Origin: a virus | Strand: one strand, 5' to 3' | DNA: 64,000 nucleotides | IMG/VR virus record: IMGVR_UViG_3300027969_000001 | Coordinates: 32,001 to 96,000 of that record | Shown: piece after piece, positions 10,561 to 32,299 of the stretch | Layout of the letters: each line of letters begins with the position of its first letter | Position numbering within the stretch: position 1 is the first letter of the stretch | Notes under the pieces: model-generated | What the model saw: the letters and a program-made list of their open reading frames with translations, nothing else | Database searches by the model: none | Told to the model about the DNA's origin: nothing | Position numbers and translations under genes: made by a program

Positions 10561-10705
10561 CGATAGCGAGCGATTGACTTATCTATCACTGTACGGCTCT
10601 GTGTGAGCGTCACGGTAACGAGTTGAGTGAGAATGAGTAGTAGTGACAGAGCGAGCGTGTACGGCTCTGTGAGTAGCGCAAGAATGAATAGCAGAATCTC
10701 CATGA

Positions 10706-10909
10706 CTACTGTCTATCAGCAAGTTCAGCAAGAACGGACATAATGTTATTGCCTTCATTCCACATCAGATTATCGTAGTCCTCGTACGCTTTCTGTGGCG
10801 TGTATGTGCCTGCGATTATCTCGTCTTGTATTGCAGAGTAGTATCTAATTGCGCTCGTAAGACTCGCCTGCAAGTCTGTTAGTAATTCTGATTCAGATGG
10901 CTCGGTCAT
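10706..10909 (-). CDS. Hypothetical protein
   Basis: AAGGA RBS. Confidence 0.55.
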   Translation of the reverse strand: MTEPSESELLTDLQASLTSAIRYYSAIQDEIIAGTYTPQKAYEDYDNLMWNEGNNIMSVLAELADRQ

Positions 10910-10981
10910 AAAAAATCCTTTTTTTGATTAGTAATAGATAAGTGTCAGATGTGGTACATGAATAGATAAGTGAAACGCCAA

Positions 10982-11037
10982 TGTCTCTCGGCAATGTGTA
11001 GTACCCACCAAAGGAGAAACACGATTACCGAGAGACA
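10982..11037 (-). ncRNA. Hairpin with anti-Shine-Dalgarno loop (UUUCUCCUUUGGUGGGUA) in the 3' region of the MoxR/VWA operon
   Basis: 14-bp stem with a G-U pair on the minus strand. Confidence 0.4.
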
Positions 11038-11047
11038 CTAGCACCAG

Positions 11048-11085
11048 TGCCTCTGTTGGGAACAACCAAGAAACCAACAGAGGCA
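11048..11085 (-). terminator. Hairpin just downstream of the VWA gene
   Basis: TGCCTCTGTTGG/CCAACAGAGGCA inverted repeat. Confidence 0.5.
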
Positions 11086-11097
11086 GGGACTTATCTA

Positions 11098-12645
11098 TTA
11101 CTGAATGTTCACGCCCATGTGCTGACGATAAGTGTGAACGAACATTGACGGATACACGCTCTTTGGCTTTATGCCTTTGTTCATGTTGGACAGTTGCTCA
11201 ATCGCTTCCTCAATGTGTGGCACAACAATGTAGTTGTGTTTCATTGCGTAAGTTAGGCACTGCATAGCGAGCAGGTCTGTGTAACCATCACCTTCGCCAC
11301 ACACTCCACCGTCTGTAATCCAAACGAGAGGAGTGTTGCGATACTGGCGATTCTCTACGCCCCACACGATTGCAGGATAATCAACACCGTTTCCGTGTCC
11401 GTAAGGAATGTTCTCCAATGTCTCAATCATTCGTCCCTTATCAGCGATAATCCACATGTTCGCACCGTTCTTTTTGTGACGGTCTGAATAGATTGCCACC
11501 GTTGCGCCTTTTGCCAAATCTGTAATCTGCCAAATCTGCTCTTTGGTGAATGACATAGAACCACTTGCGTCAATGATGACCATGCCACCACTGCCACGAA
11601 CGGTCTTGTCAAATACTCGCTTTGCAGGGTCAGTCATGTAACGGTGCATACGGCGTGGTCTGCGCCCCATGTTCGTAGCAACACGCTTCTTGCCGATTGT
11701 GCCAGCGTGTAAGCGTGGCATAGGAACACGCTCAATGCGTAGTTCTGCCCACTTGCCAGTGCCACTGTGTGATGTTGGGGTAATGCTCTGATGAGGAATA
11801 CCTTTCTTGTCACCTTCCTCTGAATCGCCTTCGTTGGAATGGACTGCCGTAGCAGGGTCTTTCTCGCCTTCTTCGCCTTCGCCTGACTTATCTATTCCCT
11901 TTGCACCTGCACCAGCCTTGCCTTCTTTCTCACGCTCTTTTGGTGGTGGGAATGAAGCGAGCCTGTCCACCCATTCTGCGATTCTTTCTGTGTGAACGAA
12001 TCCGTATGGCGCAATGCCGTGATGTTCTGTTGTGTTGGCGAGAGAGCGTGTCTTGTGCGCTTTCTTCATCTCACGGACTGCTCGCTTGCTGATGTCAAGC
12101 AGAGCGTCACCCCATGCACGATTGTGCCTGCGAATACCGTTCAGGAATTGCTTGTGTCCAGCAGTGCCAGCAGTTGCGATTGCACCTGTTACTGCACCAG
12201 CCCAATCTCCAGTTTTCGCTAGGCGTTCTCCGTCATTGAGTTCTCCACCGTCAGCGAGATTCTTCTTCACATCAAATCCTGCCTCTTGGCAAAGAATGTT
12301 TATGCGTAATTCCTCTACAACGGTCAGTGCAGTAGCAGAAGCCATTTCACGAGCAACCCACATCTCAAATTGTTCAGAGTTTGGTGAAACTTTTGAGTGC
12401 ATGAGTTCATGCCCACGAATACAGCGAGCGAGTTCGTCCGTCTGTGACGGTGTGAACATTGTGCGAGTATTCAGGTCAGTGCTTGGCTCGCCTCTGACTG
12501 CTTGACATTCTTCTACTGTCCATCGTCCATGCGCTAAGTCTTTGCGCCCGATGAAGTTTGGCTCGGCTTTCGCCGTTCCCCCTGACTTATCTATTGACGA
12601 GGGGAACGGCTTACCAACGCTCTTTCGTGCTGGCTTGATACTCAT
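11098..12645 (-). CDS. HExxH metallopeptidase-like plus VWA domain protein (CobT-like partner of the MoxR ATPase)
   Basis: HELMH; acidic linker; MIDAS IIDASGSM; WITDG. Confidence 0.8.
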   Translation of the reverse strand: MSIKPARKSVGKPFPSSIDKSGGTAKAEPNFIGRKDLAHGRWTVEECQAVRGEPSTDLNTRTMFTPSQTDELARCIRGHELMHSKVSPNSEQFEMWVAREMASATALTVVEELRINILCQEAGFDVKKNLADGGELNDGERLAKTGDWAGAVTGAIATAGTAGHKQFLNGIRRHNRAWGDALLDISKRAVREMKKAHKTRSLANTTEHHGIAPYGFVHTERIAEWVDRLASFPPPKEREKEGKAGAGAKGIDKSGEGEEGEKDPATAVHSNEGDSEEGDKKGIPHQSITPTSHSGTGKWAELRIERVPMPRLHAGTIGKKRVATNMGRRPRRMHRYMTDPAKRVFDKTVRGSGGMVIIDASGSMSFTKEQIWQITDLAKGATVAIYSDRHKKNGANMWIIADKGRMIETLENIPYGHGNGVDYPAIVWGVENRQYRNTPLVWITDGGVCGEGDGYTDLLAMQCLTYAMKHNYIVVPHIEEAIEQLSNMNKGIKPKSVYPSMFVHTYRQHMGVNIQ

Positions 12646-12647
12646 GG

Positions 12648-13373
12648 TTAGACCACCGAATCAACTGCGATAGCGTCAAGAATCTGCTTTGCTCGCTTGC
12701 CGAATGTGAGTTGGCATGCTCGTTCCATGCCTACGCTCTTACGCAACTTGTCAAGAGCCATAAATGCTCGCAACGAGATACGGTCATCGCCAGCGTCAGC
12801 CATACGGATTGCGTATCCACGCAAATCCTTTGACAATGCGAGCAGAGCGTGTGGGTGTGGTTCGTTGATACGAATACGGATTGGGAAACGGTCAGCGAGT
12901 GCTGTTGGCAATTCGCCCATGTTCTCAATGTTCGTGGTCATAATTGCAGAGAAGCCTTCTTTGGGTCGGACTACCGAGCCAGTTTCAGGATGCTCAAATG
13001 AAGCAGATTCAGGTGAATCAAGCATGGCGAGAAGTGTTGCGAACACATCGCCACCAGCCTTGTCAATTTCGTCCACGATAAGTCGTGCGCCAACTGTGCC
13101 GTTGCCGTTCCATGCTTTGAGGGCAGAACCGTCAAGCCATTGGAAGCCACCGTTATTACTTGGCATGAAGCCACCAGTTACATCCATGTTTGTCATGTCC
13201 TCTGTGCAAACAAGACGGTATGCGCCTGCTTCCACATTGCCCATTGTCATACCTGCGTAGGTCTTGCCGATTCCAGCAGGTCCAAACAGGATTACTCGGT
13301 CAATGCCTGCATTGAGAGCGTCATTGAGGTCAGTCCAGCACTGAGGCAGGCTTTCCGTTGTTGTTGATTCCAT
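12648..13373 (-). CDS. MoxR/CobS-like AAA+ ATPase
   Basis: GPAGIGKT, LIVDEID, TTN, ALADRF. Confidence 0.9.
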   Translation of the reverse strand: MESTTTESLPQCWTDLNDALNAGIDRVILFGPAGIGKTYAGMTMGNVEAGAYRLVCTEDMTNMDVTGGFMPSNNGGFQWLDGSALKAWNGNGTVGARLIVDEIDKAGGDVFATLLAMLDSPESASFEHPETGSVVRPKEGFSAIMTTNIENMGELPTALADRFPIRIRINEPHPHALLALSKDLRGYAIRMADAGDDRISLRAFMALDKLRKSVGMERACQLTFGKRAKQILDAIAVDSVV

Positions 13374-13662
13374 CTCTATTCTCCTTGTTGTTGGTGAGTG
13401 GTGAACACACCATACCAGCGTAGGTACAGACCTACAAACCTGACTTATCTATTCAGTAGAGACTTATCTATTCAGTATCAGAAGCGCACCACTTATCTAT
13501 TCACTCTCCACTTGTGGGCAAGCGAGCGAGCGAGTGCGCCAGCGCAAACTTTTTTATCTCTACCCCCATGCTCGCCACACGCCCTTCTGCGTTGGAGCCC
13601 CGATGTTGCCGAGCAGTGCCGGGGCTCCTATGGGAAAGGGGACTTATCTATTACAGATAGTT

Positions 13663-14145
13663 TTATTTTTCTCGTTTGGGAACCATAAGAACTTCCCATA
13701 GTCCATTTTTGATTTTGCGAAATAATGGAGATTCTTTGAGGTAGGTCAAAGTTGTCTGGTAAGAGAATCCTGATTGTTCTGTGAGTTGGTCAGATGTAAA
13801 TTGCTCTGCCTGATGTTCGCTTGACCACTGCTCAAATGCTGACCACTTATCTTTGCGCTTCTCTGTGCGTTCTACTTCTACCTGTGCGTCAGATAGTCCG
13901 ATGAATGTTGATAGAAGGTACTTTGATACTTCTGCCTGCACCGAGTATGTACTTAGGTACGATTGTGGTACACGCTGTCCACCTTCTCGTTGCCAAATCT
14001 GCAATACATAAAGTCCTCTGTTTATTTCAGAAACATAAGAAACTTCCGAGAACGGAACTGCTGTTGCGTTTTTGTATTTTTTGAGAAGCACTGCCCAATG
14101 TTCTTTGTGTACTTCTTTGATTAGGTCATCTGTAATAGTTTGCAT
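13663..14145 (-). CDS. Hypothetical protein with C-terminal wHTH-like domain
   Basis: FTSDQLTEQSGFSYQTTLTYLK...FRKIKNGLWEV. Confidence 0.6.
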   Translation of the reverse strand: MQTITDDLIKEVHKEHWAVLLKKYKNATAVPFSEVSYVSEINRGLYVLQIWQREGGQRVPQSYLSTYSVQAEVSKYLLSTFIGLSDAQVEVERTEKRKDKWSAFEQWSSEHQAEQFTSDQLTEQSGFSYQTTLTYLKESPLFRKIKNGLWEVLMVPKREK

Positions 14146-14225
14146 TTTTTCCTTTTTTTTGCAGTTTCTACCGTTTAGTTTTTTTCTAAAAAATCGTTTT
14201 TTTGATAGATAAGTAAGTTGGGCTG

Positions 14226-14435
14226 TTAGTCAATAACAACCCAACTGTCCTCTCCCTTGATTAGTCCGAGACTAGACCCACTATCCCACTGCACAAACAT
14301 TGTTCCTAGTGAATCAAAGTCGGTAATGACCCCTTCATCTCCTTTGGATAGTTTGGTGTGAATGTCAGATGTGTAAATCAGCCTGATTCTCCTGCCAATA
14401 AGTGCTTCTAGTCCTGCTGACAACTTATCTATCAT
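14226..14435 (-). CDS. DUF4314-like SH3-fold protein
   Basis: G.RIRL...GDEG....D..GT..VQWD.GSSLGLI.GED. Confidence 0.8.
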   Translation of the reverse strand: MIDKLSAGLEALIGRRIRLIYTSDIHTKLSKGDEGVITDFDSLGTMFVQWDSGSSLGLIKGEDSWVVID

Positions 14436-14586
14436 GCTGGCTCTTTCTCTTGTAACGCGATGATTCGCATGTCTAATAGAAAATCTGTCATTTCTAATGA
14501 CGAAACAATGTCTCTGCCTGAACAGTGGGAGATTGCTTTGTCAATCAACAAGACGATTGGTGACTTATCTATTACAGATTCTTCAC

Positions 14587-14826
14587 TCATTCTGCGTACC
14601 CGTAAATAACCATGTCAAGTTCGTTGCCTTCTTCATCGGTGTACTTCTTCTTTCCCTCTCCTGCACAGTCGTCAAAGTATTCATCGGCTTCCAACATAAT
14701 CATTTCCATGATGTCATCAAAGTCGGGCTTCTCATCGTTGTCCTCTCTGAATCGCTTTGCCGTTTCTGCCACATCAAATGTGACAGTATTGGTGCGAGTT
14801 ACTGTGATTGTTTTTGGCTCAGACAC
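14587..14826 (-). CDS. Hypothetical acidic protein
   Basis: ORF track; GTG start overlaps Box A. Confidence 0.55.
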   Translation of the reverse strand: MSEPKTITVTRTNTVTFDVAETAKRFREDNDEKPDFDDIMEMIMLEADEYFDDCAGEGKKKYTDEEGNELDMVIYGYAE

Positions 14827-14830
14827 TTAT

Positions 14831-15499
14831 CTATTCCTCATCTTTCTTTTTCTTAGCGTTACCAAGTAGGTCGTGGTAACGGTGAGCAACTACGGCGAGT
14901 TTCATGTAGGCAGTGGTAGCACCCATAGCCTCAACCATGCGTCCGTACTCCTGACCTTCTTTTACTTCGCTTACATCTGCCATGTAATCTTCTTCCGAAT
15001 ACACAGGAACTCCAAAGTCATCGTAGCGATACATTTGAGTAGCACTACCAATCAACGAACCATCCCAGTCCATGCCAGTAACAACGATTGCTTCACGGAC
15101 TTCTGAAAAAGGATTCTCTGAAAAGTCTTTCTGCATTTCGCCACGCTCAAAGTCAATTTCTTCTGATGTGTCTGCACTACGGCAGAAACCCTCTACACAG
15201 AGAAAGAGGAAAGAGAACTCACGGATAGGCATAGCCTTGACTACATCTTCGTACGCCTCTAATACATCTTCACGGTGAATGAGTGGAATCATTGCAATCT
15301 TGTATGGAGAAGATAATTCGTTTTCTTCCTGATACTCAACTGCATCTTCGTCATCGCTCTTGTAAGCAACGAGCATGAGTGGGGGAGTGTCTGTCATCCC
15401 CTCGTCTTTGCACATTTGCTCTTTGGCGTACTTAGTACGGTCAAGAACATCCAGCATTATTTTTGACATTTCTTCTGAAATGGTTTCGTTGATAGCCAT
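14831..15499 (-). CDS. Hypothetical protein (start at MAINE)
   Basis: AAGGAG RBS; promoter at 15531. Confidence 0.7.
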   Translation of the reverse strand: MAINETISEEMSKIMLDVLDRTKYAKEQMCKDEGMTDTPPLMLVAYKSDDEDAVEYQEENELSSPYKIAMIPLIHREDVLEAYEDVVKAMPIREFSFLFLCVEGFCRSADTSEEIDFERGEMQKDFSENPFSEVREAIVVTGMDWDGSLIGSATQMYRYDDFGVPVYSEEDYMADVSEVKEGQEYGRMVEAMGATTAYMKLAVVAHRYHDLLGNAKKKKDEE

Positions 15500-15559
15500 T
15501 GGCTTTCTCCTTGTTGGTAGGTGTGCAGTCATCGTACCAGTACAGGTACAGAACTACAA

Positions 15560-15766
15560 CTATCCAAGCAACCCCTGAATGGGGAGACTTAGTGCGTCAC
15601 TTAGCGAGACAAGAGTGTCCACGCTCGGCGAATAATGTTGGTTCTCAATACGGTTCACCGTTTTTCGTTCCAGCCCTGCTCGCTTTGCTAGTTCCTCTTG
15701 TGACCAGCCTCTTTCTTTTCTTTCAGTTTTTAGCCGTGTGGCAATTACTTCTGTTGCGTTTCCCAT
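15560..15766 (-). CDS. XRE/Cro-C1 HTH regulator
   Basis: RGWSQEELAKRAGLERKTVNRIENQHYSPSVDTL. Confidence 0.9.
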   Translation of the reverse strand: MGNATEVIATRLKTERKERGWSQEELAKRAGLERKTVNRIENQHYSPSVDTLVSLSDALSLPIQGLLG

Positions 15767-15800
15767 GTTGTTTCCTCTCTTGGGGACTTATCTATTTAGT

Positions 15801-16457
15801 TCAGAATGACGGAATGAAACTCTGAAACACCTTTCTCCTTTTATTTCCCCTTCTCCATGCCACATACTCCCTGATAGTGGCATCCAAATCTATGTCATGC
15901 TGGTCAGTGATGAGATTGCGCCATTCACTTTGTGCTTCGTAGAACTCGTCATACAACTCGTCAAGCCCTGATTCTGACGCTTTTTCGTACATCTGTATCA
16001 GTTCAGGTGGTTGCGTCATGTCACACATGTCCTCTGCAATCTTTTCGCCGTCACAGTAAAGTTCCCAACCAGCGTAGAAATCTGCTTCTTCTGTGCAACT
16101 GTACCCAAATACCAATTTAGGGAACTGCTTGCTGATGTTCTCAATCAACTTGTCACATGGACTCCATGCGCTCGTGTAGCGCAGATGTAGTGGGTACGAA
16201 TCTTTATCGTCAATCTCTATGTCACAAGCACCCCACTTGCTTCCCCACACGCCAAGTGCGCCACCAAAGAAAGAATCAAGTTTGTCCACCCATTCACTCT
16301 CGTCAGGGATAGGTACTAGATGGTTCATGTCATAGTGAGCGTTTATCTTGCGCCCTAGTTCATCATAATCTTCGGGCATTGAGATTGCTTTGAGAAACTT
16401 ACGAGTTTCTGTTTTGTTCCCTGCAACAACAAGGTTTGAGAAGCACCAGTTTGGCAT
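15801..16457 (-). CDS. DUF1281/YubB ferredoxin-like protein
   Basis: MPNWC.., WGSKWG, Y/F-T-S/A-A-W-S-P. Confidence 0.75.
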   Translation of the reverse strand: MPNWCFSNLVVAGNKTETRKFLKAISMPEDYDELGRKINAHYDMNHLVPIPDESEWVDKLDSFFGGALGVWGSKWGACDIEIDDKDSYPLHLRYTSAWSPCDKLIENISKQFPKLVFGYSCTEEADFYAGWELYCDGEKIAEDMCDMTQPPELIQMYEKASESGLDELYDEFYEAQSEWRNLITDQHDIDLDATIREYVAWRRGNKRRKVFQSFIPSF

Positions 16458-16715
16458 GGTAGTCCTTTCGGGTTAGTGGTGGTATGCAATGAGCGTACCA
16501 GCACAGGTTCAGAACTACTCGGGGGGACTTATCTATTACTCATCCACCACCGTCATTGACTAACGAGCAAAAGTTTTCTATCTCATCCCCCAAGATTTTT
16601 GACTTTTCTATCTCTACCCCCCATGCGCCGATTTTTTCTCTTTTTCGCCGTGTTCCGAAGGAGCCCCGACCAGTTTGGTTCGCCCCGGGGCTCTTTTGGG
16701 AAAAGGACTTATCTA

Positions 16716-17038
16716 TTACATAGGGAGAGTTACGAGTTGTGCCGAGTGGATGTACCAGCCGTAAGCGTGACGGTGTGTCATGTAGTGCAGTAGTTCCTTG
16801 ACATCGGTAAGGTGCGTGAACACATCTTCCAACGGAACGCCGTGGCTATCAAAGAATCCACGCTCGGGCTTGGGTGAGAACGAGATGTACATGTTCTCGT
16901 ATCCCTCATAAGAGCCATAAGACCTCTGTGGCTTTATCTGGCACTGCGCTCCAATAAACTTTTTTTTTGTCATCATCAGAAAGAGAGTCTTTATCAAAGA
17001 CCAAATGTGGGCGAATGACTTATCTATTACCATTCTCA
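16716..17038 (-). CDS. Hypothetical protein (start at MRMVIDKS)
   Basis: ORF track; start uncertain. Confidence 0.45.
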
Positions 17039-17281
17039 TGCCCTTCGCCAAACGCTGAACTGTTCGGTCAGGTCGGTACCAATCAGGGCAATAGTCAATC
17101 GTGCAATGGATTCCAGCAGTTCTTTTTCGGTAATGCCCCATTCCTCGTTAGCCCACGGGAACATCATTCCGTTCTCGTAGTCACACCAAATGTTCGCCAT
17201 TGCGCCAGCACGACTAACGCCAATGCTGTAATAGTTTTCCCATAGGATTTCATCAACTGCGTATTTGCTAGTTTTCGTCAT
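17036..17281 (-). CDS. Hypothetical protein
   Basis: Overlapping operon arrangement; GAGG RBS. Confidence 0.5.
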   Translation of the reverse strand: MTKTSKYAVDEILWENYYSIGVSRAGAMANIWCDYENGMMFPWANEEWGITEKELLESIARLTIALIGTDLTEQFSVWRRA

Positions 17282-17483
17282 TTTGTACTTCCTCTGCTAC
17301 GTGCGATGAAATCGTGTCTGCAATTTTTGAGAAATCTACACCAAACGATGCTTTCCATCTGTCCAGTACAACTTCCATCGCAAGGTTCGCAACTTCTTCC
17401 GTAGAAAGATTTGCCGAGTCAATGCTCAGCACTTCCCTTACTGTTGCTGGTCCAACTATTGCTGTTACTTCGTAAAGAGCCAC
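17268..17483 (-). CDS. Hypothetical protein
   Basis: GTG start inside Box A. Confidence 0.55.
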   Translation of the reverse strand: MALYEVTAIVGPATVREVLSIDSANLSTEEVANLAMEVVLDRWKASFGVDFSKIADTISSHVAEEVQNDEN

Positions 17484-17487
17484 TTAT

Positions 17488-17715
17488 CTATTCCTCATCT
17501 TCATAGTCGCTGTCCACGGAGAACCAGCGCATCACTGTTAGAAGCAGGTTATCGTAATCGCCCGATGTTGCTTCGGCACGAAACGCCTCTATCTCATCGG
17601 CAGTCAATCCTGCTCGCCGAGCAATTCTCTGCACACGCCCAAGTATGGAGAAGGCGTTGCCGTCCTCTCCTACTAGTGGAATGTTGATGTGTGGGTATTT
17701 TGTATCTGTACTCAT
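17488..17715 (-). CDS. Conserved small phage/plasmid protein (GEDGNAF motif)
   Basis: LVGEDGNAFSILGRV...ATSGDYDNLL. Confidence 0.75.
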   Translation of the reverse strand: MSTDTKYPHINIPLVGEDGNAFSILGRVQRIARRAGLTADEIEAFRAEATSGDYDNLLLTVMRWFSVDSDYEDEE

Positions 17716-17927
17716 TCTGAGTGTTCTCCTGTTTCCATGTCAATAGCGTAAGCATCTTCCAACTTGGCTCCTGCCAAGCCTGCAACATTCCTGCCGAATG
17801 TTCTAGCCATTTTGCCTGCTTCTTTTAGGCTCTTGGCTTCTACGGTGGTATCTTCTGTCCACTCGGCAAGACCAATCTTTTCCTGCTTTGTCAGCAGAGC
17901 GATTATTTCGTATTCTTTTGTTGCCAT
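17712..17927 (-). CDS. Hypothetical protein (start at MATKE)
   Basis: AAAGGGG RBS; promoter at 17959. Confidence 0.6.
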   Translation of the reverse strand: MATKEYEIIALLTKQEKIGLAEWTEDTTVEAKSLKEAGKMARTFGRNVAGLAGAKLEDAYAIDMETGEHSE

Positions 17928-18002
17928 TACTTTCCCCTTTGTGGTTGGCTTCGCCTTCACTGTACCACAAGAGGTACGGAACTACAAGGGGGACTTATCT
18001 AT

Positions 18003-19355: not shown

Positions 19356-19470
19356 GATGGCTCTCCTTGTTTGGTAGGTGTTGATAGCGTACCACTGTGG
19401 GTACAGAACTACTGGTGGACTTATCTATTGAGTAGTGGGGACTTCTCCCCACTACTCGCAGATGAATTGG

Positions 19471-23850: not shown

Positions 23851-23851
23851 G

Positions 23852-24340: not shown

Positions 24341-24681
24341 GTCTTACCCCTTCTAAGTAGTTTGACTACTCGTACAATACCAGCAAAGGTACGGAACTAC
24401 TAGGGGACTTATCTATTCAGTATCGGCTCGCAGTATCCACTCGGATACGCTCGCAGTTGGCTCGCATACTTCGCTCGGACTTATCTATTCAGTAATCACC
24501 CACGCCTCGCACCTACCAGCACCAGCACTCTTTTTTATCTCTACCCCCGTTGCGCCCCCACCCGTCACTTCTCGGTGGGGGCCCCGTTCGCGCTGAGTCA
24601 TGCCGGGGCTCCCATCGGGCGCAAGGTCAAGCCTTGACCTACCCGTGAGAGTAAGTCAAGGCGAGACTATCTAGCACTTAT

Positions 24682-25116
24682 CTATTCAGGAAAGGCGCTA
24701 GCCCTTGCGAGTAATCCCGTAAGTATGCCGTCAGCGTAGTAGTCAGGCGCTGTGCCGTCTAGGTACTTGCCCAATGAGGCTAGGACTGTGCGCTCAAACT
24801 CGGCGAAGGACTTATCGCCGTAGCGCCCCACCGCTTGCGTGGCAAACTTGGTAGCAGGGTAGGTAGCGAAGTCAAAGACGGTAAATGATGTCACGCTCAT
24901 GGTGGCGTGTGGTTGCCAGTGAACTAGACGGATAGTTGCCTCATACTGCTTGCGCTTAGCGTCATGGCTGAACTCAAGTTCTATTTGCTCACCCCACAAG
25001 TCATTGCTGTGGACATGCGGAATGTCTACCTTTGAGGACTGCCAACGGTAGGTGACCTCACGGTCACGCTCACGGCGCTTGGCTTGCGCTAGTAGGTTGG
25101 TGGTTGCTGTGGTCAT
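24682..25116 (-). CDS. Hypothetical protein
   Basis: GAAGGGG RBS; promoter at 25149. Confidence 0.7.
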   Translation of the reverse strand: MTTATTNLLAQAKRRERDREVTYRWQSSKVDIPHVHSNDLWGEQIELEFSHDAKRKQYEATIRLVHWQPHATMSVTSFTVFDFATYPATKFATQAVGRYGDKSFAEFERTVLASLGKYLDGTAPDYYADGILTGLLARASAFPE

Positions 25117-25487
25117 GGTTACCCCTTCATGGTTGTTTGACTACTCGCATAGTACCATCGTAGGTACGGAACTACTGTGGGACTTATCTATTACCGATAC
25201 GCTCACGCCTCGCCACTCGGCAACCCCCGATAGTTGGGCTTATCTATCTCAACCCCCGTCACAGCCTCGGAGTCTCTCGGACTCTTACGGTTGGAGCCCC
25301 GTTCGCGCTCGGTTCCCTCGGGGCTCCCATCGGGAAGGGCGCTTCCCTACTCTTGGGGGTCGTGATAAAAAAGTTTCATCTAATCGGTCAGGGTCTTTCT
25401 TTCATAGATAAGTCTCGGTGGAGGTTTGTACCTCACCATGTACTCTGTGTCCAGTTGGGGGATGGTCTCCCAGCAGGAAGGGATGCC

Positions 25488-26009
25488 ATGTTCGGTGTTG
25501 TTCAGCAGTTGGAGGACGAAGAGGTGCAGGCTCGCACTGTGCTTTTCGTTTACGAAGTCAAAGAGGAAGGCGATGCACTCGCTGTGGTTGGAACATTCCA
25601 CCCCAACTTCTTTGACCAAGACATTGTCAATCTCATCAAGGAAGAGCGCCAGTGCTCTTACAACCAAGCAGAGGACGACGAGCAGGGTTCAGCGATGGAA
25701 GCCTGTGGTTGCATTTGGTGCCTCACCGAAGGCACGGGCTATCTCAATTGGGGAAGCAACGGATGGGATGACATTCCGAGAGGGTTCGCATTTGTGCAGT
25801 TTCCAAAAAGCGCTGCAATCGCCGAAGGCTCGCTCATTCTTGTTGAAGGCAAGTGGCTCTCCGAGGACATCCACGGCGTTTCGGAAACCAAGTCCGTTAT
25901 CAACTACGAGACCACAATGGTGGAGACCTCGCATGGCACCTACCCCGAAGCCGAGTGCCTTGCAGTTGAGCATTGGGAGTTGCTACCAGCACTCCCAGCC
26001 AATCGGTAA
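25488..26009 (+). CDS. Hypothetical protein (start at MFGVV)
   Basis: Promoter at 25420-25446; AGGAAGG RBS. Confidence 0.65.
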   Translation: MFGVVQQLEDEEVQARTVLFVYEVKEEGDALAVVGTFHPNFFDQDIVNLIKEERQCSYNQAEDDEQGSAMEACGCIWCLTEGTGYLNWGSNGWDDIPRGFAFVQFPKSAAIAEGSLILVEGKWLSEDIHGVSETKSVINYETTMVETSHGTYPEAECLAVEHWELLPALPANR

Positions 26010-26267
26010 TAGATAAGTCATCAACCACTCTGAGTGAAAGAAGAACTCGCTCAGAGTGATGACCAAGGAAGCCCCGGCTCGCTCGTTCCCAACGGGGCTC
26101 CCTTGCGCTTCGCTTGCTTCGGTGGTGGGGGTCGTGATAAAAAAGTCTGCTCCTCGTTGCGAGGGAGAAGCTCGGGTTATCTGTAATAGATAAGTACCCC
26201 TAGCAGTTCTGTACCTATTGGGTTACTATTGAGTGACCACATAACACTTTCCTGAAGGGGGAACTAA

Positions 26268-26681
26268 ATGTCAAAAATAGATTATGACGGAATACAACTT
26301 TCGTACGAGGCTCAAGTTATTGAGTCAGATAAAAAGTTGCTTGATGCTTTACTTGATGCCGTGAAAGATGAAGAACTTGCACCTTTCACATTCCACATGG
26401 AGTGGGTCATCTGTGATTACTGCCGTGGCAACGGTGGACACTCTCGCCGTTTCGGTGCAATGAGTTCAGAAGAGTTTGCAGAGTGGAGCGATGAGTCTCG
26501 TGAAGCGTACTTGCGTGGTGCTTACGATGACCGTTGTGAAGCGTGTGATGGAAGTGGAAAGGTCTATGAGATGAACGAAGGCGCATTGCCTGAAGAAGTT
26601 ATTGAGTTCATTGACAACTACCGTCAGTACGCATTTGATAGCGCATCTGAAAGTCGTGCTGAACGAATGGCAGGTTGCTGA
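26268..26681 (+). CDS. Protein with two CxxCxGxG Zn-finger repeats
   Basis: CDYCRGNG...CEACDGSG; promoter at 26203. Confidence 0.7.
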   Translation: MSKIDYDGIQLSYEAQVIESDKKLLDALLDAVKDEELAPFTFHMEWVICDYCRGNGGHSRRFGAMSSEEFAEWSDESREAYLRGAYDDRCEACDGSGKVYEMNEGALPEEVIEFIDNYRQYAFDSASESRAERMAGC

Positions 26682-26920
26682 TGTTTACTTACCGTGTAAC
26701 TGTTCAGGTCACGCTTGATGTTGAGGCAGAAGATGACGATGGAGCAATGGCAGTAGCAATGCAGAATGTCAGTGCTCGCATAGGCGATGACCGTACAACA
26801 CCTCTCCACGAAAGAACTGATGCAATGTGGGTGACAGGCATTGCTGAAAGAGATTACGAATACTTTTGTTACAAGCAACCATTCCCACTATGGGTAATAG
26901 ATAAGTCAGAGGACTACTAA
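26681..26920 (+). CDS. Hypothetical protein
   Basis: TGATG coupling. Confidence 0.55.
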   Translation: MFTYRVTVQVTLDVEAEDDDGAMAVAMQNVSARIGDDRTTPLHERTDAMWVTGIAERDYEYFCYKQPFPLWVIDKSEDY

Positions 26921-26922
26921 TC

Positions 26923-27213
26923 ATGAATAACAAAAGCGATAGTTATTACACACTTAGGTCTGTCATTCGTTTTATCTTTTGGGGAACGATACTCGCAGTA
27001 ATCATGTGGATTGTTACAACATCTATTGCAGTTTTTGCATCTGATGAAACACCCGATTGTGATGTGACATTAGAGCGTGACTTCACATGGAACGCTCGTG
27101 AGTTCGCAGTGCTCAATCCAACCAAGACGCTTGCAGATTGCCGTCATTACCAAAGCGTTGTTCTCAATGAGAACGGCACATGGGAATGGTACGACCCATA
27201 CATGGACTCATAG
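26923..27213 (+). CDS. Membrane-anchored hypothetical protein
   Basis: One TM segment; GAGG RBS. Confidence 0.6.
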   Translation: MNNKSDSYYTLRSVIRFIFWGTILAVIMWIVTTSIAVFASDETPDCDVTLERDFTWNAREFAVLNPTKTLADCRHYQSVVLNENGTWEWYDPYMDS

Positions 27214-27314
27214 AAAGGATTGATTATGGTTTTTTTATTTGTTATTGCAGTAACGCTTGCAGTTCTAATAGCAATAGTTCGTGACGATAGATGGTGGTGA
27301 ACACTTATCTATTA

Positions 27315-27626
27315 CTAATCAAACGAACGAGACACTGGTAAGTCGCATTGCAAACAATCGTAATGTGCAAGTGTCTTTTTTGTTTTTCTCTTGACGATGT
27401 ACGCAGATGAAAGATGACCACCACCTTCGTACTCACTCAACAATGCTTGATGCGTTTTTATCTCTTCGCTGTTGAGACCTAAGTCCTCGGCGCAGTACGC
27501 ACAGATGTAGCCATCGGCAATCTCGTCATAGATGACAGATGTAGTCATGTCATCTTGCTCGTACTCATCAGAGAACTGGTTGGTGCTAGTTGCAAAGTAC
27601 GGTTGGAGTGCTTTTGTTTTTTTCAT
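27315..27626 (-). CDS. Hypothetical Zn-binding protein
   Basis: Two CxxC motifs; GAGG RBS. Confidence 0.55.
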   Translation of the reverse strand: MKKTKALQPYFATSTNQFSDEYEQDDMTTSVIYDEIADGYICAYCAEDLGLNSEEIKTHQALLSEYEGGGHLSSAYIVKRKTKKTLAHYDCLQCDLPVSRSFD

Positions 27627-28219
27627 TTTTTCCTCTCACCTCTTATGAGGTTGCTTGTGTTTTACAATCGGACATTTTTTCTTACATCTTTTACAAGAGT
27701 CCTTGCATCTCTTTATGTCAAAAGTTTTTGTCCGTTACCTATTAGACGTGTCATCGTCTCCGTTTCTGAAAACGATGCTCGCAGTTGATAGAAGCGTCAT
27801 CTTGATACGAAAACGAAACGACTTATCTATTCAGTAATAGAAAGCAGGCTTCGCTCGGAGAAAGTAAGCGAGTCAGCAACTTTTCTATCTCTACCCCCGT
27901 TGCAAGGCAGTTATGCCAGCGCATGGGAGCCCCGATGCTGTTCGCTCCTAACGGGGCTTCTACCTCGCGCGCGTGACGCCGAGAGCAGCAAGCTTGGGGG
28001 GTCGCGATAAATAAGCAAGATTTCAGCTGGGAGCTGGGAGCTGGGAGCTGGCGAAATAAGGGATAGATAAGTGGTTTAAATCTTTTACAAAACTGACCGA
28101 TTGCAAAACGCAACTCCTTGCAAATAAAGGGTTTGCGGTCGTAAAAATGTAGGTTTGTACCTACTTTTGTATAATCCGCGCACGCCCACAACCACCACAA
28201 CAACCCACAAGGAGCCCAC

Positions 28220-28321
28220 ATGAAGCCACACGATAAGAACAGCCGCCCACCTACCTCATTCGTAGGCGGCGCAGGTCATTGGAATAAGCGCGGCAAATCA
28301 AAGCCAAAAGATAAAAAGTAA
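28220..28321 (+). CDS. 33-aa basic microprotein (not in the ORF track)
   Basis: AAGGAG RBS directly after the promoter with a TATAAT -10; MKPHDKNSRPPTSFVGGAGHWNKRGKSKPKDKK. Confidence 0.5.
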   Translation: MKPHDKNSRPPTSFVGGAGHWNKRGKSKPKDKK

Positions 28322-28348
28322 TTCGGACAAAGGAAGGAACCACACCCG

Positions 28349-28957
28349 ATGAACACACACCCACACCACGCAGCAGTAGTAGACGCAATCAAGGCGCTAC
28401 CTGCTTACACAGACCCGCAGACATTCTTTGAGTCAGAACTAGCCGAGTGCTACTCAGACGAGGAGCTTGTAGAAACATTCGGCTGGGACGGAGACAAGGC
28501 GCTCACAATCAAGCAGGCGCTCAAAGCAGTCAAGGAGCTTTGCGAGCTTCGTCAAGATGTTTACGGCTGGATTATTGAGGAAGGCGACCGAGAGCGCGAA
28601 GCAGAGCAAGAGGCGTACAAGCGCTGGCGCGAAGAACAAGAGGCAGCTAGCCGTTGTGGTTGGCTCGTAGAGCGCTCATGGGAAGCAGCTTTCCCATTCG
28701 TGCCGAACCCCGAATACACAGATGAGGAGAACGCCGAACACAGGCAGTGGCACGGTGAAAGCCTCGGTGAACGAGCAGCAGAGTCAGGCAACCGCTACGC
28801 AATCGTTGATTGTGGTGCGAAGCTCGCAGATGTCATTCGCAACGGCGTGCGAGTTGGTTGGGAGTGCGAAGCAGGTCACCGTTCCATCAGCATGGAACAC
28901 ATGACGCAAGAGGAGCAGGACGAGCAATACCGCTTGGATTACGAGGACAGCTACTAG
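28349..28957 (+). CDS. Hypothetical acidic protein
   Basis: AAGGAAGG RBS. Confidence 0.7.
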   Translation: MNTHPHHAAVVDAIKALPAYTDPQTFFESELAECYSDEELVETFGWDGDKALTIKQALKAVKELCELRQDVYGWIIEEGDREREAEQEAYKRWREEQEAASRCGWLVERSWEAAFPFVPNPEYTDEENAEHRQWHGESLGERAAESGNRYAIVDCGAKLADVIRNGVRVGWECEAGHRSISMEHMTQEEQDEQYRLDYEDSY

Positions 28958-29123
28958 CCACCTCTTGGAATAGATAAGTTCTCCCCACGCCCCCACCCCC
29001 CCTTCCATCAGGGGCGTGGGGTTTATCGCAGGGACAAGCCCCGTTCGGGTTCGTTTCCGTCGGGGCTCTCATCGTTAGCGCGAAATGTCCGTAGGTCTGT
29101 ACCTCCCCGGGTACTCTGTGGCC

Positions 29124-29453
29124 ATGACAAAAAAACACTTCACCGATTACACCAAAGCCGAAGCATGGGCCGAGAAAAACAACCTCGCCCTAGAACCCAT
29201 CGGAACCTGCTGGGAGGAGCACACAGTGGCCTCATGGAAGAGCGATACCACCCGTATCGAAATATGGATTCAGGAGATGGAATACGCAGCAGAGCACGAG
29301 CGTGGCGGATACATCCCTTGCCTTGTGGATTGCCCTGTAGTCCTCGTGTGGGACGGCCTAGAGGCCAATGCGCCCTACACGCTCCACCCTGACTTCTGCA
29401 CGCTCACAGAGGCTCGCAAGGGCTTCGATGAGTTGGTCAGGCAAGCGAGTTAG
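29124..29453 (+). CDS. Hypothetical protein, probably leaderless (start at MTKKH)
   Basis: ATG lies 6 nt after the -10 box TACTCT. Confidence 0.6.
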   Translation: MTKKHFTDYTKAEAWAEKNNLALEPIGTCWEEHTVASWKSDTTRIEIWIQEMEYAAEHERGGYIPCLVDCPVVLVWDGLEANAPYTLHPDFCTLTEARKGFDELVRQAS

Positions 29454-29737
29454 ACACCCGGTGAACTTTTTCTCCCCGGCACGAAATTCCCTGCCGGGGA
29501 GAAATTCCGGCGGGTTTTTTCTTCACCGGAATTTCTTGCCGGAATCGGAAAGATTTTGCGCTAATGGTAGAAGCCCCGTTCTCGTTCGTTCTCTATTGTT
29601 TCGAACGGGGCTCTCATCGGCTCGGGTGTTCGGCGCGAACAACACGCGATGGGGGTTGTGATAGATAAGTGTAGGTCTGTACCTGACCAGGTACGATGCT
29701 TGTACGGCGGGAAGTACCCGCCCATGAAGGGAAAGTC

Positions 29738-30019
29738 ATGAAGCAAGTAACAATCACATGGAAAGCGTTCGGCGAACCAACATCGGCTGCACTCGCGCTT
29801 GACACGAGCGCAAGCGCGTTGGAGATATGCGATGCAATATTCCACCAAACGAATGTTTACGCTGGTCCGATATGGGACGAACTGGAACCGCTCCTGCCAG
29901 CCACACGCACACACACTGCGCTTTCAGTTGGAGACGAAGTCACAGTTGATGGCGAAGTGATTCGGTGCGAGCCAATGGGTTGGGCTACCAGGTTCATCGC
30001 TGACGCTCTTACTGAATAG
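29738..30019 (+). CDS. YodL-like small protein
   Basis: HTALSVGDEV.V......C...GW. Confidence 0.6.
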   Translation: MKQVTITWKAFGEPTSAALALDTSASALEICDAIFHQTNVYAGPIWDELEPLLPATRTHTALSVGDEVTVDGEVIRCEPMGWATRFIADALTE

Positions 30020-30231
30020 ATAAGTCCCCCCAGCGGAGAACCCCACCTCACTCGGGTGGGGTTCTTCCCGTTCTCAAGACAGCCCCGTGGCTGTTCGGCA
30101 CGAACGGGGCTCTCATCGGCGAGCGAGCGAGAATGATTGGGGGTCGCGATAGAAAAGTTTCCAAAAGAAAAGGTTGCAATCCTGTACCTGCTGTGGTACG
30201 ATTTCATCAGACCAGTAGAAGGGGTTGACCA

Positions 30232-30531
30232 ATGAGGAAAGAGACACGCTCTCTCAAAAAGAAAGCCGAAGGCCTAGGCATTTCGGTAGATGAATTAGTT
30301 GAGGAAATGGAAGTCGGGAATCCCGACAAATCGTTCGTCATAACTGTGGCCTTTGACCGATACAAAGATTTGCGTTCGTTCGCAGACGAAATCGCTCAGA
30401 GAATGGGTCTCGCAATTTATCAGGCCGATTCACTTGACCACGAATACAACGGCAGTGTGCGAGACGGAATGTTCGTCCTGCGAGACCCGAACGGTTTCCA
30501 CGGCAAACCAGACCATTGGAGGGTTGACTAG
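30232..30531 (+). CDS. Hypothetical protein
   Basis: GAAGGGG RBS; promoter at 30176. Confidence 0.6.
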   Translation: MRKETRSLKKKAEGLGISVDELVEEMEVGNPDKSFVITVAFDRYKDLRSFADEIAQRMGLAIYQADSLDHEYNGSVRDGMFVLRDPNGFHGKPDHWRVD

Positions 30532-30605
30532 TGGTGATAGATAAGTCCCCTTGTAGTTCTGTACCTTATGTAGTACGCTCTGTTCAGACCACGGAAGGGG
30601 TTTCC

Positions 30606-30908
30606 ATGATAACAACGGAAAAATTCGAGATGCTCAAAGAGCAACTGGAAGCATCAACAGACCAGATGAAGAAAATGGTAGAGGCGCTAAGAACGCCAAC
30701 ACCATGCGATTGCTGCTTCTCAGACGAGGAGAACGCTGAGAATTATCGCGATTTTGAGAACGCAGTTCGCGACCTCTCTAACGAATGTCAAGAGATTGCG
30801 ATGAAGGCCTACGATTGCTACATGGCCATCACCCGCGCTCCACTGGAAATTGCGCTCGCACAACTGGATGCGATGCAAGAGGGCTACCGCCTCCTCGCCG
30901 AACAATAG
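30606..30908 (+). CDS. Hypothetical helical protein (start at MITTE)
   Basis: GAAGGGG RBS; promoter at 30553. Confidence 0.6.
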   Translation: MITTEKFEMLKEQLEASTDQMKKMVEALRTPTPCDCCFSDEENAENYRDFENAVRDLSNECQEIAMKAYDCYMAITRAPLEIALAQLDAMQEGYRLLAEQ

Positions 30909-31149
30909 GTAATAGATAAGTCCCCCGAGCACCCCCCGCTCGGGGGATTTTCTTTGCCCGTGACCCAGCCCGTACTTGTAATAGATAAGTCCCCTGTTGT
31001 GATGAAGCCCCGTCTTCGGCGGAGTCCGTTCGTCTCCGACGGGGCTCTCATCGGCGAGCGAGCGAGAGTGCATTGGGGGTCGTGATAAAAAAGTGTAGGT
31101 CTGTACCTAGTGCAGTACAGTGTGGTCATACCAACGGAAGGGGTACGAG

Positions 31150-31656
31150 ATGCCAAAGACGGCTCTACAAGTAAAGACCACAGGTGAAGTAGTAATGCTT
31201 GACCTAGAGGGTGACGAACTAGCAACACTGCAGAGTGCAGTGGGCGGATACATTGAAGCAATAAACTTCACCAACTCGCTGACTATGTGGTGCAACGAAG
31301 AAGGCAAACTAGACGGTCTCTCGCAGAACATCATTGCTCAACACTTCTATGACAATGCATACGGTGCAGGGCGTGACATTATCGTGGGTGATGTTGTATT
31401 CACTGGCGGTGCTGATGATGAAGGTGACACAATGGGTCTCCGTGAAGAATTGGTCAAAGACATTCACGAAGTAGCCGAGCGTCTTGCTCGCTCCGCAGTG
31501 TTCATCACCAAGGCAGAGACGAAGAAGGTCATGAGCTGGCAAGACCATCTCGGTGACGCTCCTATGACAGAGGAGAATGTGTGGCAGGCAATTGCTGATG
31601 CGAATGACCTTGACTACGACGAAATTGCTGACGGCGATTTATTTGAGTGGCTCTAG
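31150..31656 (+). CDS. DUF3846-like protein (paralog of 18912..19355)
   Basis: LQSAVGGYIE, CNEEGKL, IVGDVVFTG. Confidence 0.8.
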   Translation: MPKTALQVKTTGEVVMLDLEGDELATLQSAVGGYIEAINFTNSLTMWCNEEGKLDGLSQNIIAQHFYDNAYGAGRDIIVGDVVFTGGADDEGDTMGLREELVKDIHEVAERLARSAVFITKAETKKVMSWQDHLGDAPMTEENVWQAIADANDLDYDEIADGDLFEWL

Positions 31657-31743
31657 CGCTCAATTATTGGTAATAGATAAGTGCCAATTGTAGGTCTGAA
31701 CCTACGGTGGTACTGTGTGGTCACCTAAGGAAAGGGGTACGCA

Positions 31744-32085
31744 ATGTCATCAGACATTACATTCATCAACAGAGTGCAGGAAGCACTCACGGCAGGCAAG
31801 GTTATCGGGGACGGGCACACTCTGTTCGCTCCCGAGTTCTACGAGCCGTACTTCACGGCAGAGGAACTCTCTAGCCTTATTCGTAAGCACGAATCTCACG
31901 GCTCGTGGAAATCCACCATCTTTGACGAGGACGGCAATGTCATTCCTGAATTAGAGGCTATCTACAATCTAGATTTTCTCTACTGGCTCGCAGGGCAACT
32001 CGGAGTGACGGAGCGCACCACAGCGAACGGCAGAGGCTCGCAGGCTCAGCAACTCGTAGGGTACATCAGAGAAATACTGGTCTAA
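31744..32085 (+). CDS. Hypothetical protein
   Basis: AAAGGGG RBS; promoter at 31690. Confidence 0.65.
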   Translation: MSSDITFINRVQEALTAGKVIGDGHTLFAPEFYEPYFTAEELSSLIRKHESHGSWKSTIFDEDGNVIPELEAIYNLDFLYWLAGQLGVTERTTANGRGSQAQQLVGYIREILV

Positions 32086-32299
32086 CCAACAGAGCCACAA
32101 CGGCTCCCTACTGAATAGATAAGTCCCCCGAGTGTCATTGCTCGGGGGACTTGTCGTGTCCATGCACATTCGAGTCTTGTATCTGTAATAGATAAGTACC
32201 CCGCGCCAAGGAAGCCCCGGGTGACTCCGTTTCACACGGGGCTCTCTTGTGAGATTGTTTAAAGATGTGTAGGATTGCTTAACTATTCAGGAGGACATC

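Follow-up and report, generated by a model that had tools for sequence, protein, structure and literature searches.

A cassette array built from four repeated regulatory motifs in a freshwater tailed phage, with signs of PeSL-like cassette turnover and a lineage-variable Box A

Introduction

The window analysed in this study (64,000 nucleotides, bases 32001-96000 of the single virus record IMGVR_UViG_3300027969_000001, 158,714 bp) contains, at positions 10576-32243, an array of approximately 20 promoter-gene-terminator cassettes made from four repeated DNA motifs, namely a promoter with a built-in palindrome, a GC hairpin, a G-box and an oriented 12-nt element termed Box A. The locus raises two questions: whether whole cassettes are gained, lost and moved through these repeats, and what Box A does among them. 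An earlier description, made without database searches (hereafter the sequence-only reading), had taken the region for a gene-capture and shuffling platform and had compared it with integrons and with the PeSL (early promoter plus stem-loop) repeats of T4-like phages. On balance, the results presented below lean towards PeSL-like shuffling of co-regulated cassettes, combined with a stoperator-like Box A operator, in a tailed freshwater phage. Compared to that description, two points are new: Box A is rewritten lineage by lineage, and a Rad52-type module is present elsewhere in the genome.

The record is rated complete by IMG/VR, with direct terminal repeats reported. Because a portal protein, a large terminase, an HK97-type capsid protein and collagen-like tail fibres are encoded in the genome, the phage (G000) is considered to be tailed. 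The sequencing runs that contain it are labelled freshwater or lake water, and no RNA run was listed among them. Five complete relatives (G001-G005) were compared with G000. Positions are those of the window unless a genome or another locus is named.

Organization of the array

The array comprises 20 promoter cores, 16 hairpins, about 20 G-boxes, 58 Box A copies and some 44-45 small genes. Along the direction of transcription the order is gene stop/Box A, hairpin, G-box, Box A, promoter, ribosome-binding site (RBS) and gene(s), and this arrangement is seen at about 20 places. All four repeated elements, among them those that the sequence-only reading had listed, were recovered in the region that it gave and far above chance, and its strand switch at 25.2-25.4 kb was confirmed. 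Of the 58 Box A copies, 47 follow the dominant direction of their array half; a number of the others have a small opposite-strand gene as neighbour. The array ends that it proposed, 10576 and 32243, hold for the dense part, but the same grammar extends thinly outside them, with Box A copies from 8575 to 40273 and an exact promoter core at 39652-39666. The two halves meet as follows.

25146-25433, both strands: divergence point
25162-25176 (-): leftward promoter
25182-25191 (-): Box A
25238-25257 (-): G-box
25295-25332: hairpin
25355-25374 (+): G-box
25404-25413 (+): Box A
25419-25433 (+): rightward promoter

The cumulative GC skew has a local minimum at this divergence point (24000-26000), the lowest value in the first 58 kb of the window; it may reflect a mere switch of gene strand or mark a replication origin.

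The promoter core TGTAGGTCTGTACCT occurs in 20 copies (at most 3-4 mismatches) between 13.4 and 31.7 kb. The whole element spans about 30 nt, in which TGTAG(G/T)TCTGTACCT is followed by N5-6 and then (T)GGTAC(A/G)nT, and 20-35 nt behind each copy stand a purine-rich RBS (AAGGAG- or GAAGGGG-type) and an ATG. It is plausible, as judged from the motif, that the element is read by a housekeeping sigma factor, with TTGTAG as the -35 box, a 17-nt spacer and TGg-TAcnnT as an extended -10 box. The spacer and the -10 box together hold the inverted repeat CTGTACC-N6-GGTACAG, with 19 matches (at most 3 mismatches) against 2.06 expected.

13422-13436 (exact), 15544-15558, 16505-16519, 17972-17986, 19399-19413, 19932-19946, 20885-20899, 21710-21724, 23174-23188, 24387-24401 and 25162-25176 (-): leftward promoter cores
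25419-25433, 26202-26216, 28148-28162, 29090-29104, 29670-29684, 30175-30189, 30552-30566, 31094-31108 (exact) and 31689-31703 (+): rightward promoter cores

At the promoter of 29090-29130, the ATG (29124) lies only about 9 nt behind the -10 box (TACTCT ... ATG), and this unit may give a leaderless or nearly leaderless mRNA.

The GC hairpin, GGAGCCCCG-N13-17-CGGGGCTCC, has 16 copies, all within 13.6-32.25 kb. Its stem measures 9-11 bp and its loop 13-17 nt, with folding energies of -20 to -27 kcal/mol, and it is probably a bidirectional terminator. Between hairpin and promoter lies the G-box, GGGGGTCGTGATAAAAAAGT (19-23 copies; for example, 26127-26146 (+)), in which a G run is followed by a degenerate Box A as the 3' half; in the relatives, this half varies jointly with Box A. 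The promoter spacer (A)GTCTG(T/A)ACC, the extended -10 box and the hairpin are kept in all five relatives.

25295-25332, and starts at about 13597, 16663, 18483, 20054, 20962, 21869, 23297, 24580, 26069, 27928, 29037, 29582, 30081, 31007 and 32213: GC hairpin copies

A further repeat, TGACGGTGGTGGA(A/T)GA, stands on the coding strand directly upstream of some start codons; no other repeat is as common in the clade that lacks Box A. Two independent pairs of relatives show small genes inserted exactly between this repeat and the ATG.

10226-10262, 16529-16565, 18349-18385 and 21740-21776: TGACGGTGGTGGA(A/T)GA repeat in the window
about 14386 in relatives L120/L122 and about 12914/15091 in L130/L133: the same repeat

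Cassette leaders are also touched by a small RNA candidate with two hairpins at 6760-6895 (+), whose fold (6768-6885) reaches -56.9 kcal/mol (z = -2.9). Its loop 1 (UACCCCUUUC) is complementary to the GAAAGGGGTA leaders of cassettes, the count of which is modestly above chance (8 versus 2.9), and its loop 2 (UUGGUAGGUGG) is complementary to CCACCTACCAA leaders.

Gain and loss of whole cassettes

Loci around two anchor genes, which bound the region in G000 and in all five relatives, were collected from IMG/VR, and pairs 85-99% identical were compared. In addition, contigs of four lake runs were aligned to 12600-32500, and their junctions were read; this comparison does not polarise the events, so that gain and loss are not told apart.

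11098-12645 (-): conserved 515-residue gene, left anchor, with in-frame Box A at 11886-11895 and 12585-12594 and Box A at its stop (11089-11098)
34498-36417 (+): SNF2-family helicase gene, right anchor of the variable region, with intragenic Box A at 34999 (+) and 36262 (-)

The sequence-only reading had proposed that breakpoints between relatives should map to the repeats. Whole cassettes are indeed present or absent, and a repeat of the same kind stands at both ends in 7 of 13 two-ended events, the pairs being hairpin with hairpin, box with box, or the spacer between hairpin and G-box with its like. Of the single breakpoints, half (14/28) are no more than 8 nt away from one of the four elements, a zone that takes up 13% of the region (binomial P = 3e-6, with the whole region as the null). 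Three pairs of relatives illustrate the pattern. Compared to L130, locus L133 carries an insert of approximately 790 bp, both ends of which lie inside hairpin copies and which forms a unit of G-box, Box A, promoter, gene and Box A; L132 and L136 are in the same cassette state as L133. An extra 484 bp in L112 relative to L114 lies between two copies of Box A plus promoter, and an extra 1565 bp in L203 relative to L200 lies between two hairpins. Contigs of the lake runs X4 and X5 lack or replace the following pieces of the window.

29061-29605 (+): cassette missing in one X4 contig; joint 29060>29606, in the right arms of two hairpins with 14 identical bases
30127-31073 (+): two cassettes missing in another X4 contig; joint 30126>31074, within the repeated stretch (about 30 nt) that links hairpin and G-box
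30158-30550 (+): cassette (promoter, gene of 99 residues, Box A) missing in an X5 contig; joint 30157>30551, reaching from the Box-A-like end of a G-box to a point immediately past a Box A
20900-21146: small opposite-strand unit replaced by 28 nt in the same X5 contig; joint 20899>21147, flanked by a promoter plus Box A (-) at one end and by Box A (+) at the other

The X5 contig is 44 kb long at 41x coverage and, piece by piece, roughly 94-98% identical to the window; it holds two further insertions of 200-250 nt at ribosome sites (about 17934 and 29728). Two joints of X4, 16720>21187 and 20337>23463, were set aside, as they have only 20-21 letters on one side. In some indels the breaks lie at start or stop codons with 4-5 nt of microhomology, or Box A is present at one end only.

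Between the two anchors, the interval measures 16-22 kb in the four relatives in which it could be measured directly. Across the six genomes, about 18 gene families are shared in the leftward half, which forms a largely collinear backbone interrupted by scattered indels. The rightward half consists mostly of genes that are unique to each genome, those of G000 mostly having no homologues in the five relatives. A few gene families are found at other places or on the opposite strand in different relatives. One such case is a leftward unit within the rightward half, whose gene has a homologue called on the other strand in three relatives.

27303-27898 (-): leftward unit, with its gene at 27315-27626 and Box A copies and a G-box on the minus strand

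Thus, the shuffling platform of the sequence-only reading stands in part: cassette indels at repeats and the PeSL analogy speak for it, and the collinear leftward half speaks against it, as do the indels, about half of the total, that avoid the motifs. The same two observations are what a plain co-regulated early regulon would lead one to expect, in which recombination is an incidental by-product of 14-45-nt repeats and an annealing recombinase, and no 'platform' has been selected. In that case the single gene order of the leftward half in six genomes would be ordinary, the use of start-codon, stop-codon or RBS microhomology would be that of any mosaic phage, and it would be natural that relatives lacking Box A still hold 27-30 conserved promoter copies. 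We regard this reading as rather unlikely; what is selected for and what is a by-product are inseparable here, but in either case whole expressible units are gained and lost at repeats.

Placement of Box A

The Box A core, ATAGATAAGT, is found 65 times without mismatch in the window, where shuffles give an expectation of 0.09; the whole genome holds 66 copies, 64 of which lie between genome positions 35.7 and 72.3 kb. The full variant of G000 is AATAGATAAGTC, with the 58 copies mentioned above lying within 10.5-32.3 kb. Behind genes, a co-oriented Box A follows the stop codon within 25 nt in 25 of 44 genes, and in 13 the stop abuts or lies inside the box. At most promoters of G000, Box A lies 5-9 nt upstream of the -35 box, and in G001 it occupies the -35 position itself.

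26009-26018 (+): Box A abutting a gene stop (TAA-TAGATAAGT), as an example

Read as codons, the core contains stops in two frames. In many copies a further stop lies four bases upstream, so that no frame stays open; the three-stop forms are TGA-A-TAG-A-TAA in G000, TAG-G-TAG-A-TAA in G001 and TAA-C-TAG-A-TAA in G004. As read from these frames, Box A would end any reading frame recombined in front of it, and the stop codons may be selected or a side effect.

These features could point to a role in RNA, with Box A as a cleavage or binding site that splits polycistronic early transcripts, or as a universal translation stop or insulator, read by a lineage-specific RNA-binding protein or nuclease. 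The orientation with transcription in 47 of 58 copies, the contact with 13 gene stops and the proximity to 25 of 44 gene ends would all fit, as would the TAG and TAA that the core always holds in two frames, often with a third stop added. We nevertheless consider such a role unlikely. For about 17 copies, which are placed between hairpin and promoter with a fixed spacing to the -35 box, little RNA is expected, since a promoter-proximal Box A behind a hairpin is probably not transcribed; the box of G001 takes the place of the -35 box; copies in frame within two essential-looking genes would be cut too; and Box A is found in hairpin loops no more often than at random positions. The fixed distance to the -35 box, the lack of transcription expected for the promoter-proximal copies and the lack of display in loops therefore favour a DNA-binding factor over a reader of RNA, and Box A probably acts in DNA.

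Lineage variants of Box A

The six complete genomes each hold 43-97 exact copies of a variant of their own, confined to a syntenic 30-40 kb, and at least eight variant groups are found among 41 loci. All variants but one have the core TAG[AG]TAA[GC]T in common.

G001: GGTAGATAAGTC
G002: (G)AGTAGATAAGTC
G003: CTAATAGATAACT
G004: ACTAGATAAGT
G005 and G009: AGGTGTAGGTAAGTC

In the comparison of G002 with G005 (80.4% identical over 10.5 kb aligned), 26 of 31 G005 sites match a G002 site in place and strand, and all of them are switched. Against G009, 19 of 24 sites are switched in place. In one orthologous intergenic region, G002 shares the promoter, the RBS and the hairpin arms with G005 and G009, and all four Box A copies and the G-box are switched in place. 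Genome-wide, G002 and G009 form the closer pair, yet the box variant of G009 is that of G005. The two in-frame copies of the 515-residue gene are found at orthologous places in seven variant groups, each in the version of its own lineage; the clade that lacks Box A does not have them. The GGTGTAGGTAAGT lineage has its 5' copy shifted by a few codons, through recoding of a conserved GKAFP run to GKSFP.

Such uniformity within a genome could come from concerted evolution alone, that is, from gene conversion during cassette shuffling and no co-evolving factor. Hairpin arms and G-boxes are likewise uniform within a genome and different between genomes, and recombination among the repeats is documented. 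We find this account quite improbable. Conversion needs flanking homology, but the in-frame copies of the 515-residue and SNF2 genes, which carry the lineage variant, lie in unique sequence; one copy has been made anew by point changes in a neighbouring codon run; and the promoters, RBSs and hairpin arms around switched boxes stay conserved. Therefore, gene conversion cannot explain the in-frame sites, and selection to match a trans-acting reader can; the differences of Box A between lineages thus suggest a trans-acting factor.

A distant clade, in which the anchor gene is 48-53% identical, has no Box A, and two of its three genomes hold 27-30 copies of a promoter-like repeat. In that clade (G006, G007 and loci L143-L157), the repeat reads TTTTGTAAATCTGATATCG or TTTTGGAAATTTGGTATC. 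A scan of IMG/VR for the exact pattern of Box A plus promoter gave no match, because the variants of Box A are lineage-specific, and a literature search for the Box A sequence found no phage-biology paper.

Recombination enzymes

The sequence-only reading was correct that no recombinase gene lies in the window. Across the complete genome, no match was found to tyrosine (PF00589) or serine (PF00239) recombinases, for which control genomes were positive, and the RecT and RecA families are absent as well. A candidate pair of another kind is encoded beside the terminase gene, just downstream of it.

genome 134513-135187: Rad52_Rad22-family annealing protein, 224 residues (E = 1.3e-14)
genome 135180-135956: PD-(D/E)XK (PDDEXK_1) Cas4-like exonuclease, 258 residues (E = 1.5e-33), its start overlapped by the Rad52 gene

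An annealing protein with an exonuclease is the usual two-gene recombination module of phages. Rad52-like phage recombinases are reported to act on short and diverged homology (PMC3945230), and the two proteins may act on the repeats of the array. In locus L005 the pair lies at 16513-17956, outside the window, and a weak HNH match lies at L005:18499-18843.

An integron-like site-specific capture system, which the short-cassette array with a palindromic boundary element had brought to mind, is highly improbable, given that the complete genome is devoid of tyrosine and serine recombinases, that every cassette has its own promoter, that nothing resembling attC or attI is present, and that the crossovers fall in repeats of different kinds and at variable points inside them.

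Candidate readers of Box A and the palindrome

Three proteins were considered as readers of the repeated sites.

15560-15766 (-): XRE-family HTH_3 protein, 68 residues, at the same place in all relatives, recognition helix invariant
9853-10227 (+): protein with an HA domain and a sigma-70 region-4-like helix-turn-helix (HA/sigma-4 protein), in all relatives, helix-turn-helix invariant
242-757 (-): basic protein of 171 residues with a winged-helix-like order of helices and strands, in the Box A clade only, fast-evolving

The recognition helices of the XRE and HA/sigma-4 proteins are invariant, and constant targets, namely the Box A core or the promoter palindrome, fit them better. The XRE protein is the candidate that probably binds the promoter palindrome, and the HA/sigma-4 protein may recognise either the promoter or the constant core of Box A. 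As a specificity factor, the winged-helix-like protein is a weak candidate: its modelled fold is of low confidence (pLDDT 58), and a family-wide locus search for it failed, with too few conserved columns.

A phyletic screen of five genomes with Box A versus three without it gave 18 candidates, ten of which were newly scanned and had no Pfam family. Two open reading frames were rejected as Box A factors: that of 148 residues at 10257-10703 (-) is a junk frame over a real plus-strand gene of 94 residues, and the clade-restricted protein of 222 residues at 14831-15499 is acidic. A three-genome site-pattern test (G002, G005, G009) was likewise rejected as a guide to the factor, as it picked out mosaic blocks, namely a giant helicase protein, an Ig-like protein and a PD-(D/E)XK nuclease, and not a DNA-binding protein. 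One of these blocks, a giant virion protein with SF1 helicase modules at G002 23190-32126 (-), strongly groups G005 and G009 against G002, opposite to the genome-wide signal; the pattern across this 9-kb block indicates mosaic exchange.

Proposed mechanism and its weighing

Based on the results presented above, the region would be an accessory gene region of the 'host-takeover' type, composed of about 20 self-contained transcription units. Each unit would have an extended -10 promoter with its built-in palindrome, a strong RBS, one to four small genes and a GC hairpin that would terminate transcription arriving from either side. Because one promoter and one operator are common to all units, they are probably switched together, and the most likely switch would be the XRE protein encoded within the array. 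As the comparison of relatives shows, the repeated regulatory DNA at the same time serves as a substrate for homologous or single-strand-annealing recombination, which deletes, inserts and sometimes inverts whole units, presumably through the Rad52-family protein and the PD-(D/E)XK exonuclease of the phage itself. This would be the PeSL mechanism in an unrelated phage family, and not site-specific capture. Box A, which stands at gene ends, upstream of -35 boxes and inside two conserved genes, would be the binding site of a lineage-specific factor encoded by the phage. The most likely candidate for such a factor is a regulator that binds DNA and would cover promoters and halt elongation, in the manner of the repressors at mycobacteriophage stoperators, and the stop codons of Box A would serve as a ready-made gene end for whatever is recombined upstream.

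Several points weigh against this account. The leftward half is largely collinear among relatives rather than an array of freely shuffled units. Roughly one in two indel breakpoints lies at a start codon, a stop codon or an RBS and not at the four motifs, and versus a null restricted to intergenic DNA, the enrichment of single breakpoints would be weak; the argument therefore rests on the paired, in-register ends in elements of the same kind. The structural variants come from metagenome contigs, in which misjoining at repeats could occur, but the shared stretches are mostly shorter than the assembly words, and one event is seen in three separate contigs. The two conserved helix-turn-helix proteins do not vary with Box A, no protein is tied to Box A, and the winged-helix-like proteins of two phages with a common box variant show only 60% identity. 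A scan for the E. coli sigma-70 consensus, which may not be that of the host, does not call the repeated promoter and finds fewer promoter-like sites than in shuffles, and a terminator scan is near background. The hairpin loops are large, and a T run is absent behind the hairpins of G000; in relative G003, a T run follows the corresponding hairpin. Finally, the roles in expression, binding and termination are read from the DNA sequence.

On the preferred reading, cassette turnover and a Box A operator go together, and a bolder extension is conceivable, although we hold it only tentatively: Box A may be the genome-wide 'address code' of a fast-evolving phage factor whose specificity has flipped repeatedly, with some 60-100 sites rewritten in place at each flip, including sites recoded inside essential genes. 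If so, the large lytic phages of one family would fall into groups that are incompatible in their regulation. Any cassette or co-infecting relative that carries the wrong code would be mis-regulated, and the element that moves cassettes within a lineage would limit their exchange between lineages. 

On the preferred reading, logic of the PeSL type appears independently outside the T4-like phages, in an abundant uncultured freshwater family; terminase relatives in IMG/VR number 572 contigs, the 80 best of which are 82-87% identical. The natural variants in lake metagenomes, together with a plausible enzyme pair, suggest that regulatory repeats may be a general route of accessory-gene turnover in large phages. 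Box A looks stoperator-like in a large, probably lytic phage and offers an unusually clean natural experiment on the joint change of a code and its sites. For annotation of these phages, the grammar supplies exact gene ends, promoters and unit boundaries, and it marks the 44-45 small genes as likely candidates for host takeover or anti-defence.

Genes in and around the array

Pfam supported most of the cargo named in the sequence-only reading, namely two DUF3846 genes, DUF4314, DUF1281_C, DUF6011 and the XRE HTH_3 gene; the YodL-like and LysM domains that it had also listed gave no match at E <= 0.01 among the open reading frames scanned. The remaining open reading frames of the array gave no significant Pfam family, with two weak matches below the curated cut-off.

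12648-13373 (-): AAA_5 ATPase, possibly CobS/MoxR-like, first gene of the leftmost conserved cassette
14226-14435 (-): DUF4314
15801-16457 (-): DUF1281_C (Api92-like ferredoxin-like domain)
18912-19355 (-): DUF3846, copy 1
23852-24340 (-): DUF6011
31150-31656 (+): DUF3846, copy 2

We suspect, from the AAA_5 neighbour, that the 515-residue gene and the adjoining AAA_5 gene form a CobS/CobT-like pair; the 515-residue protein gave no Pfam match, and a VWA domain was not detected in it. Near the 5' end of this gene, a hairpin lies within the coding sequence at 12546-12640 (-), with the arms GTTCCCC ... GGGGAAC in G000. It is kept across lineages with some compensatory changes (covariation 0.194 versus 0.130 in shuffles), and Box A lies in its loop in most lineages and just 5' of it in the GGTGTAGGTAAGT lineage.

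Outside the array, a calcineurin-like metallophosphoesterase of 416 residues is encoded at 1606-2856 (+). Its counterpart in G002 has 482 residues with Ig-like and LPXTG-like signals, and there G005 and G009 agree against G002. The terminase of the phage shares 43-45% identity with its counterparts in Gordonia phages and Methanothermobacter phage psiM100. When INPHARED was searched with the array by megablast, no match was found, and the sole match of the neighbouring stretch was a 36-nt piece of Acidovorax phage ACP17. The identical 36 nt lie inside the first of two tandem tRNA genes, tRNA-Met (CAT) and tRNA-Ile (TAT), at 43929-44090 (-); an Rfam scan at the gathering threshold returned two tRNAs and no other known RNA family. 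An actinobacterial host is a guess, prompted by the extended -10 promoters, the terminators devoid of T runs and an Rpf-type transglycosylase.

Comparison with known systems

With integrons, the array shares tandem short cassettes and imperfect palindromes at their boundaries, but G000 has no integrase, attI, attC or single common promoter, and its cassettes point both ways. The host-takeover module of Bacillus phage SPO1, attributed to Stewart and colleagues in 1998, reportedly holds about two dozen small early genes with many near-identical strong promoters and terminators. The present array is likewise a cluster of small genes served by many near-identical promoters and terminators. To our knowledge, the SPO1 module lies in the terminal redundancy and is without a Box-A-like element, and we know of no description of repeat-mediated shuffling in it.

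Stoperators and operators are known from Cluster A mycobacteriophages such as L5 and Bxb1 (PMC6550527; PMC9283540). Each genome has 20-30 of these asymmetric sites of 13 bp, which are oriented with transcription, and lineages have their own consensus and cognate repressors (PMC6550527). Box A is similarly an asymmetric site of 12-14 bp in many copies, oriented with transcription, with some copies at promoters and most between genes or at gene ends, and its consensus differs between lineages at syntenic sites. In contrast to stoperators, Box A has 43-97 sites packed within 30-40 kb and not 20-30 over a whole genome, it overlaps stop codons, its core is constant and its 5' flank variable, and it belongs to a large phage that is probably lytic; in G000, in which the tyrosine and serine recombinase families were scanned genome-wide, neither a repressor nor an integrase or partition system was identified.

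The closest parallel is with the PeSLs, for which modular shuffling has been described in T4-like phages (Arbiol et al. 2010, PMC2839356; Comeau et al. 2014, PMC4122927). A PeSL is a repeat of about 100 bp that joins an AT-rich upstream stop, an early promoter, a stem-loop terminator and a Shine-Dalgarno sequence (PMC2839356). Approximately 50 copies per genome lie in hyperplastic regions and flank indels between close relatives, and excised mini-circles have been detected (PMC2839356; PMC4122927). Some differences are clear. The family of G000 is unrelated to T4-like phages, its promoter is not of the E. coli consensus type, its hairpin lies outside the promoter, and it has in addition the G-box and the oriented, lineage-variable 12-mer, which also occurs inside genes; the promoter and terminator described here are predicted from sequence. 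On the other hand, at every sequence-level point examined, the analogy drawn by the sequence-only reading was upheld. A composite repeat joins promoter, stem-loop, upstream stop, downstream Shine-Dalgarno sequence and start codon at about 20 places; the copies number dozens in a variable region (here, genome 40-72 kb) of small genes that mostly lack a Pfam family; and the repeats flank indels between close relatives, which are explained by homologous recombination between copies.

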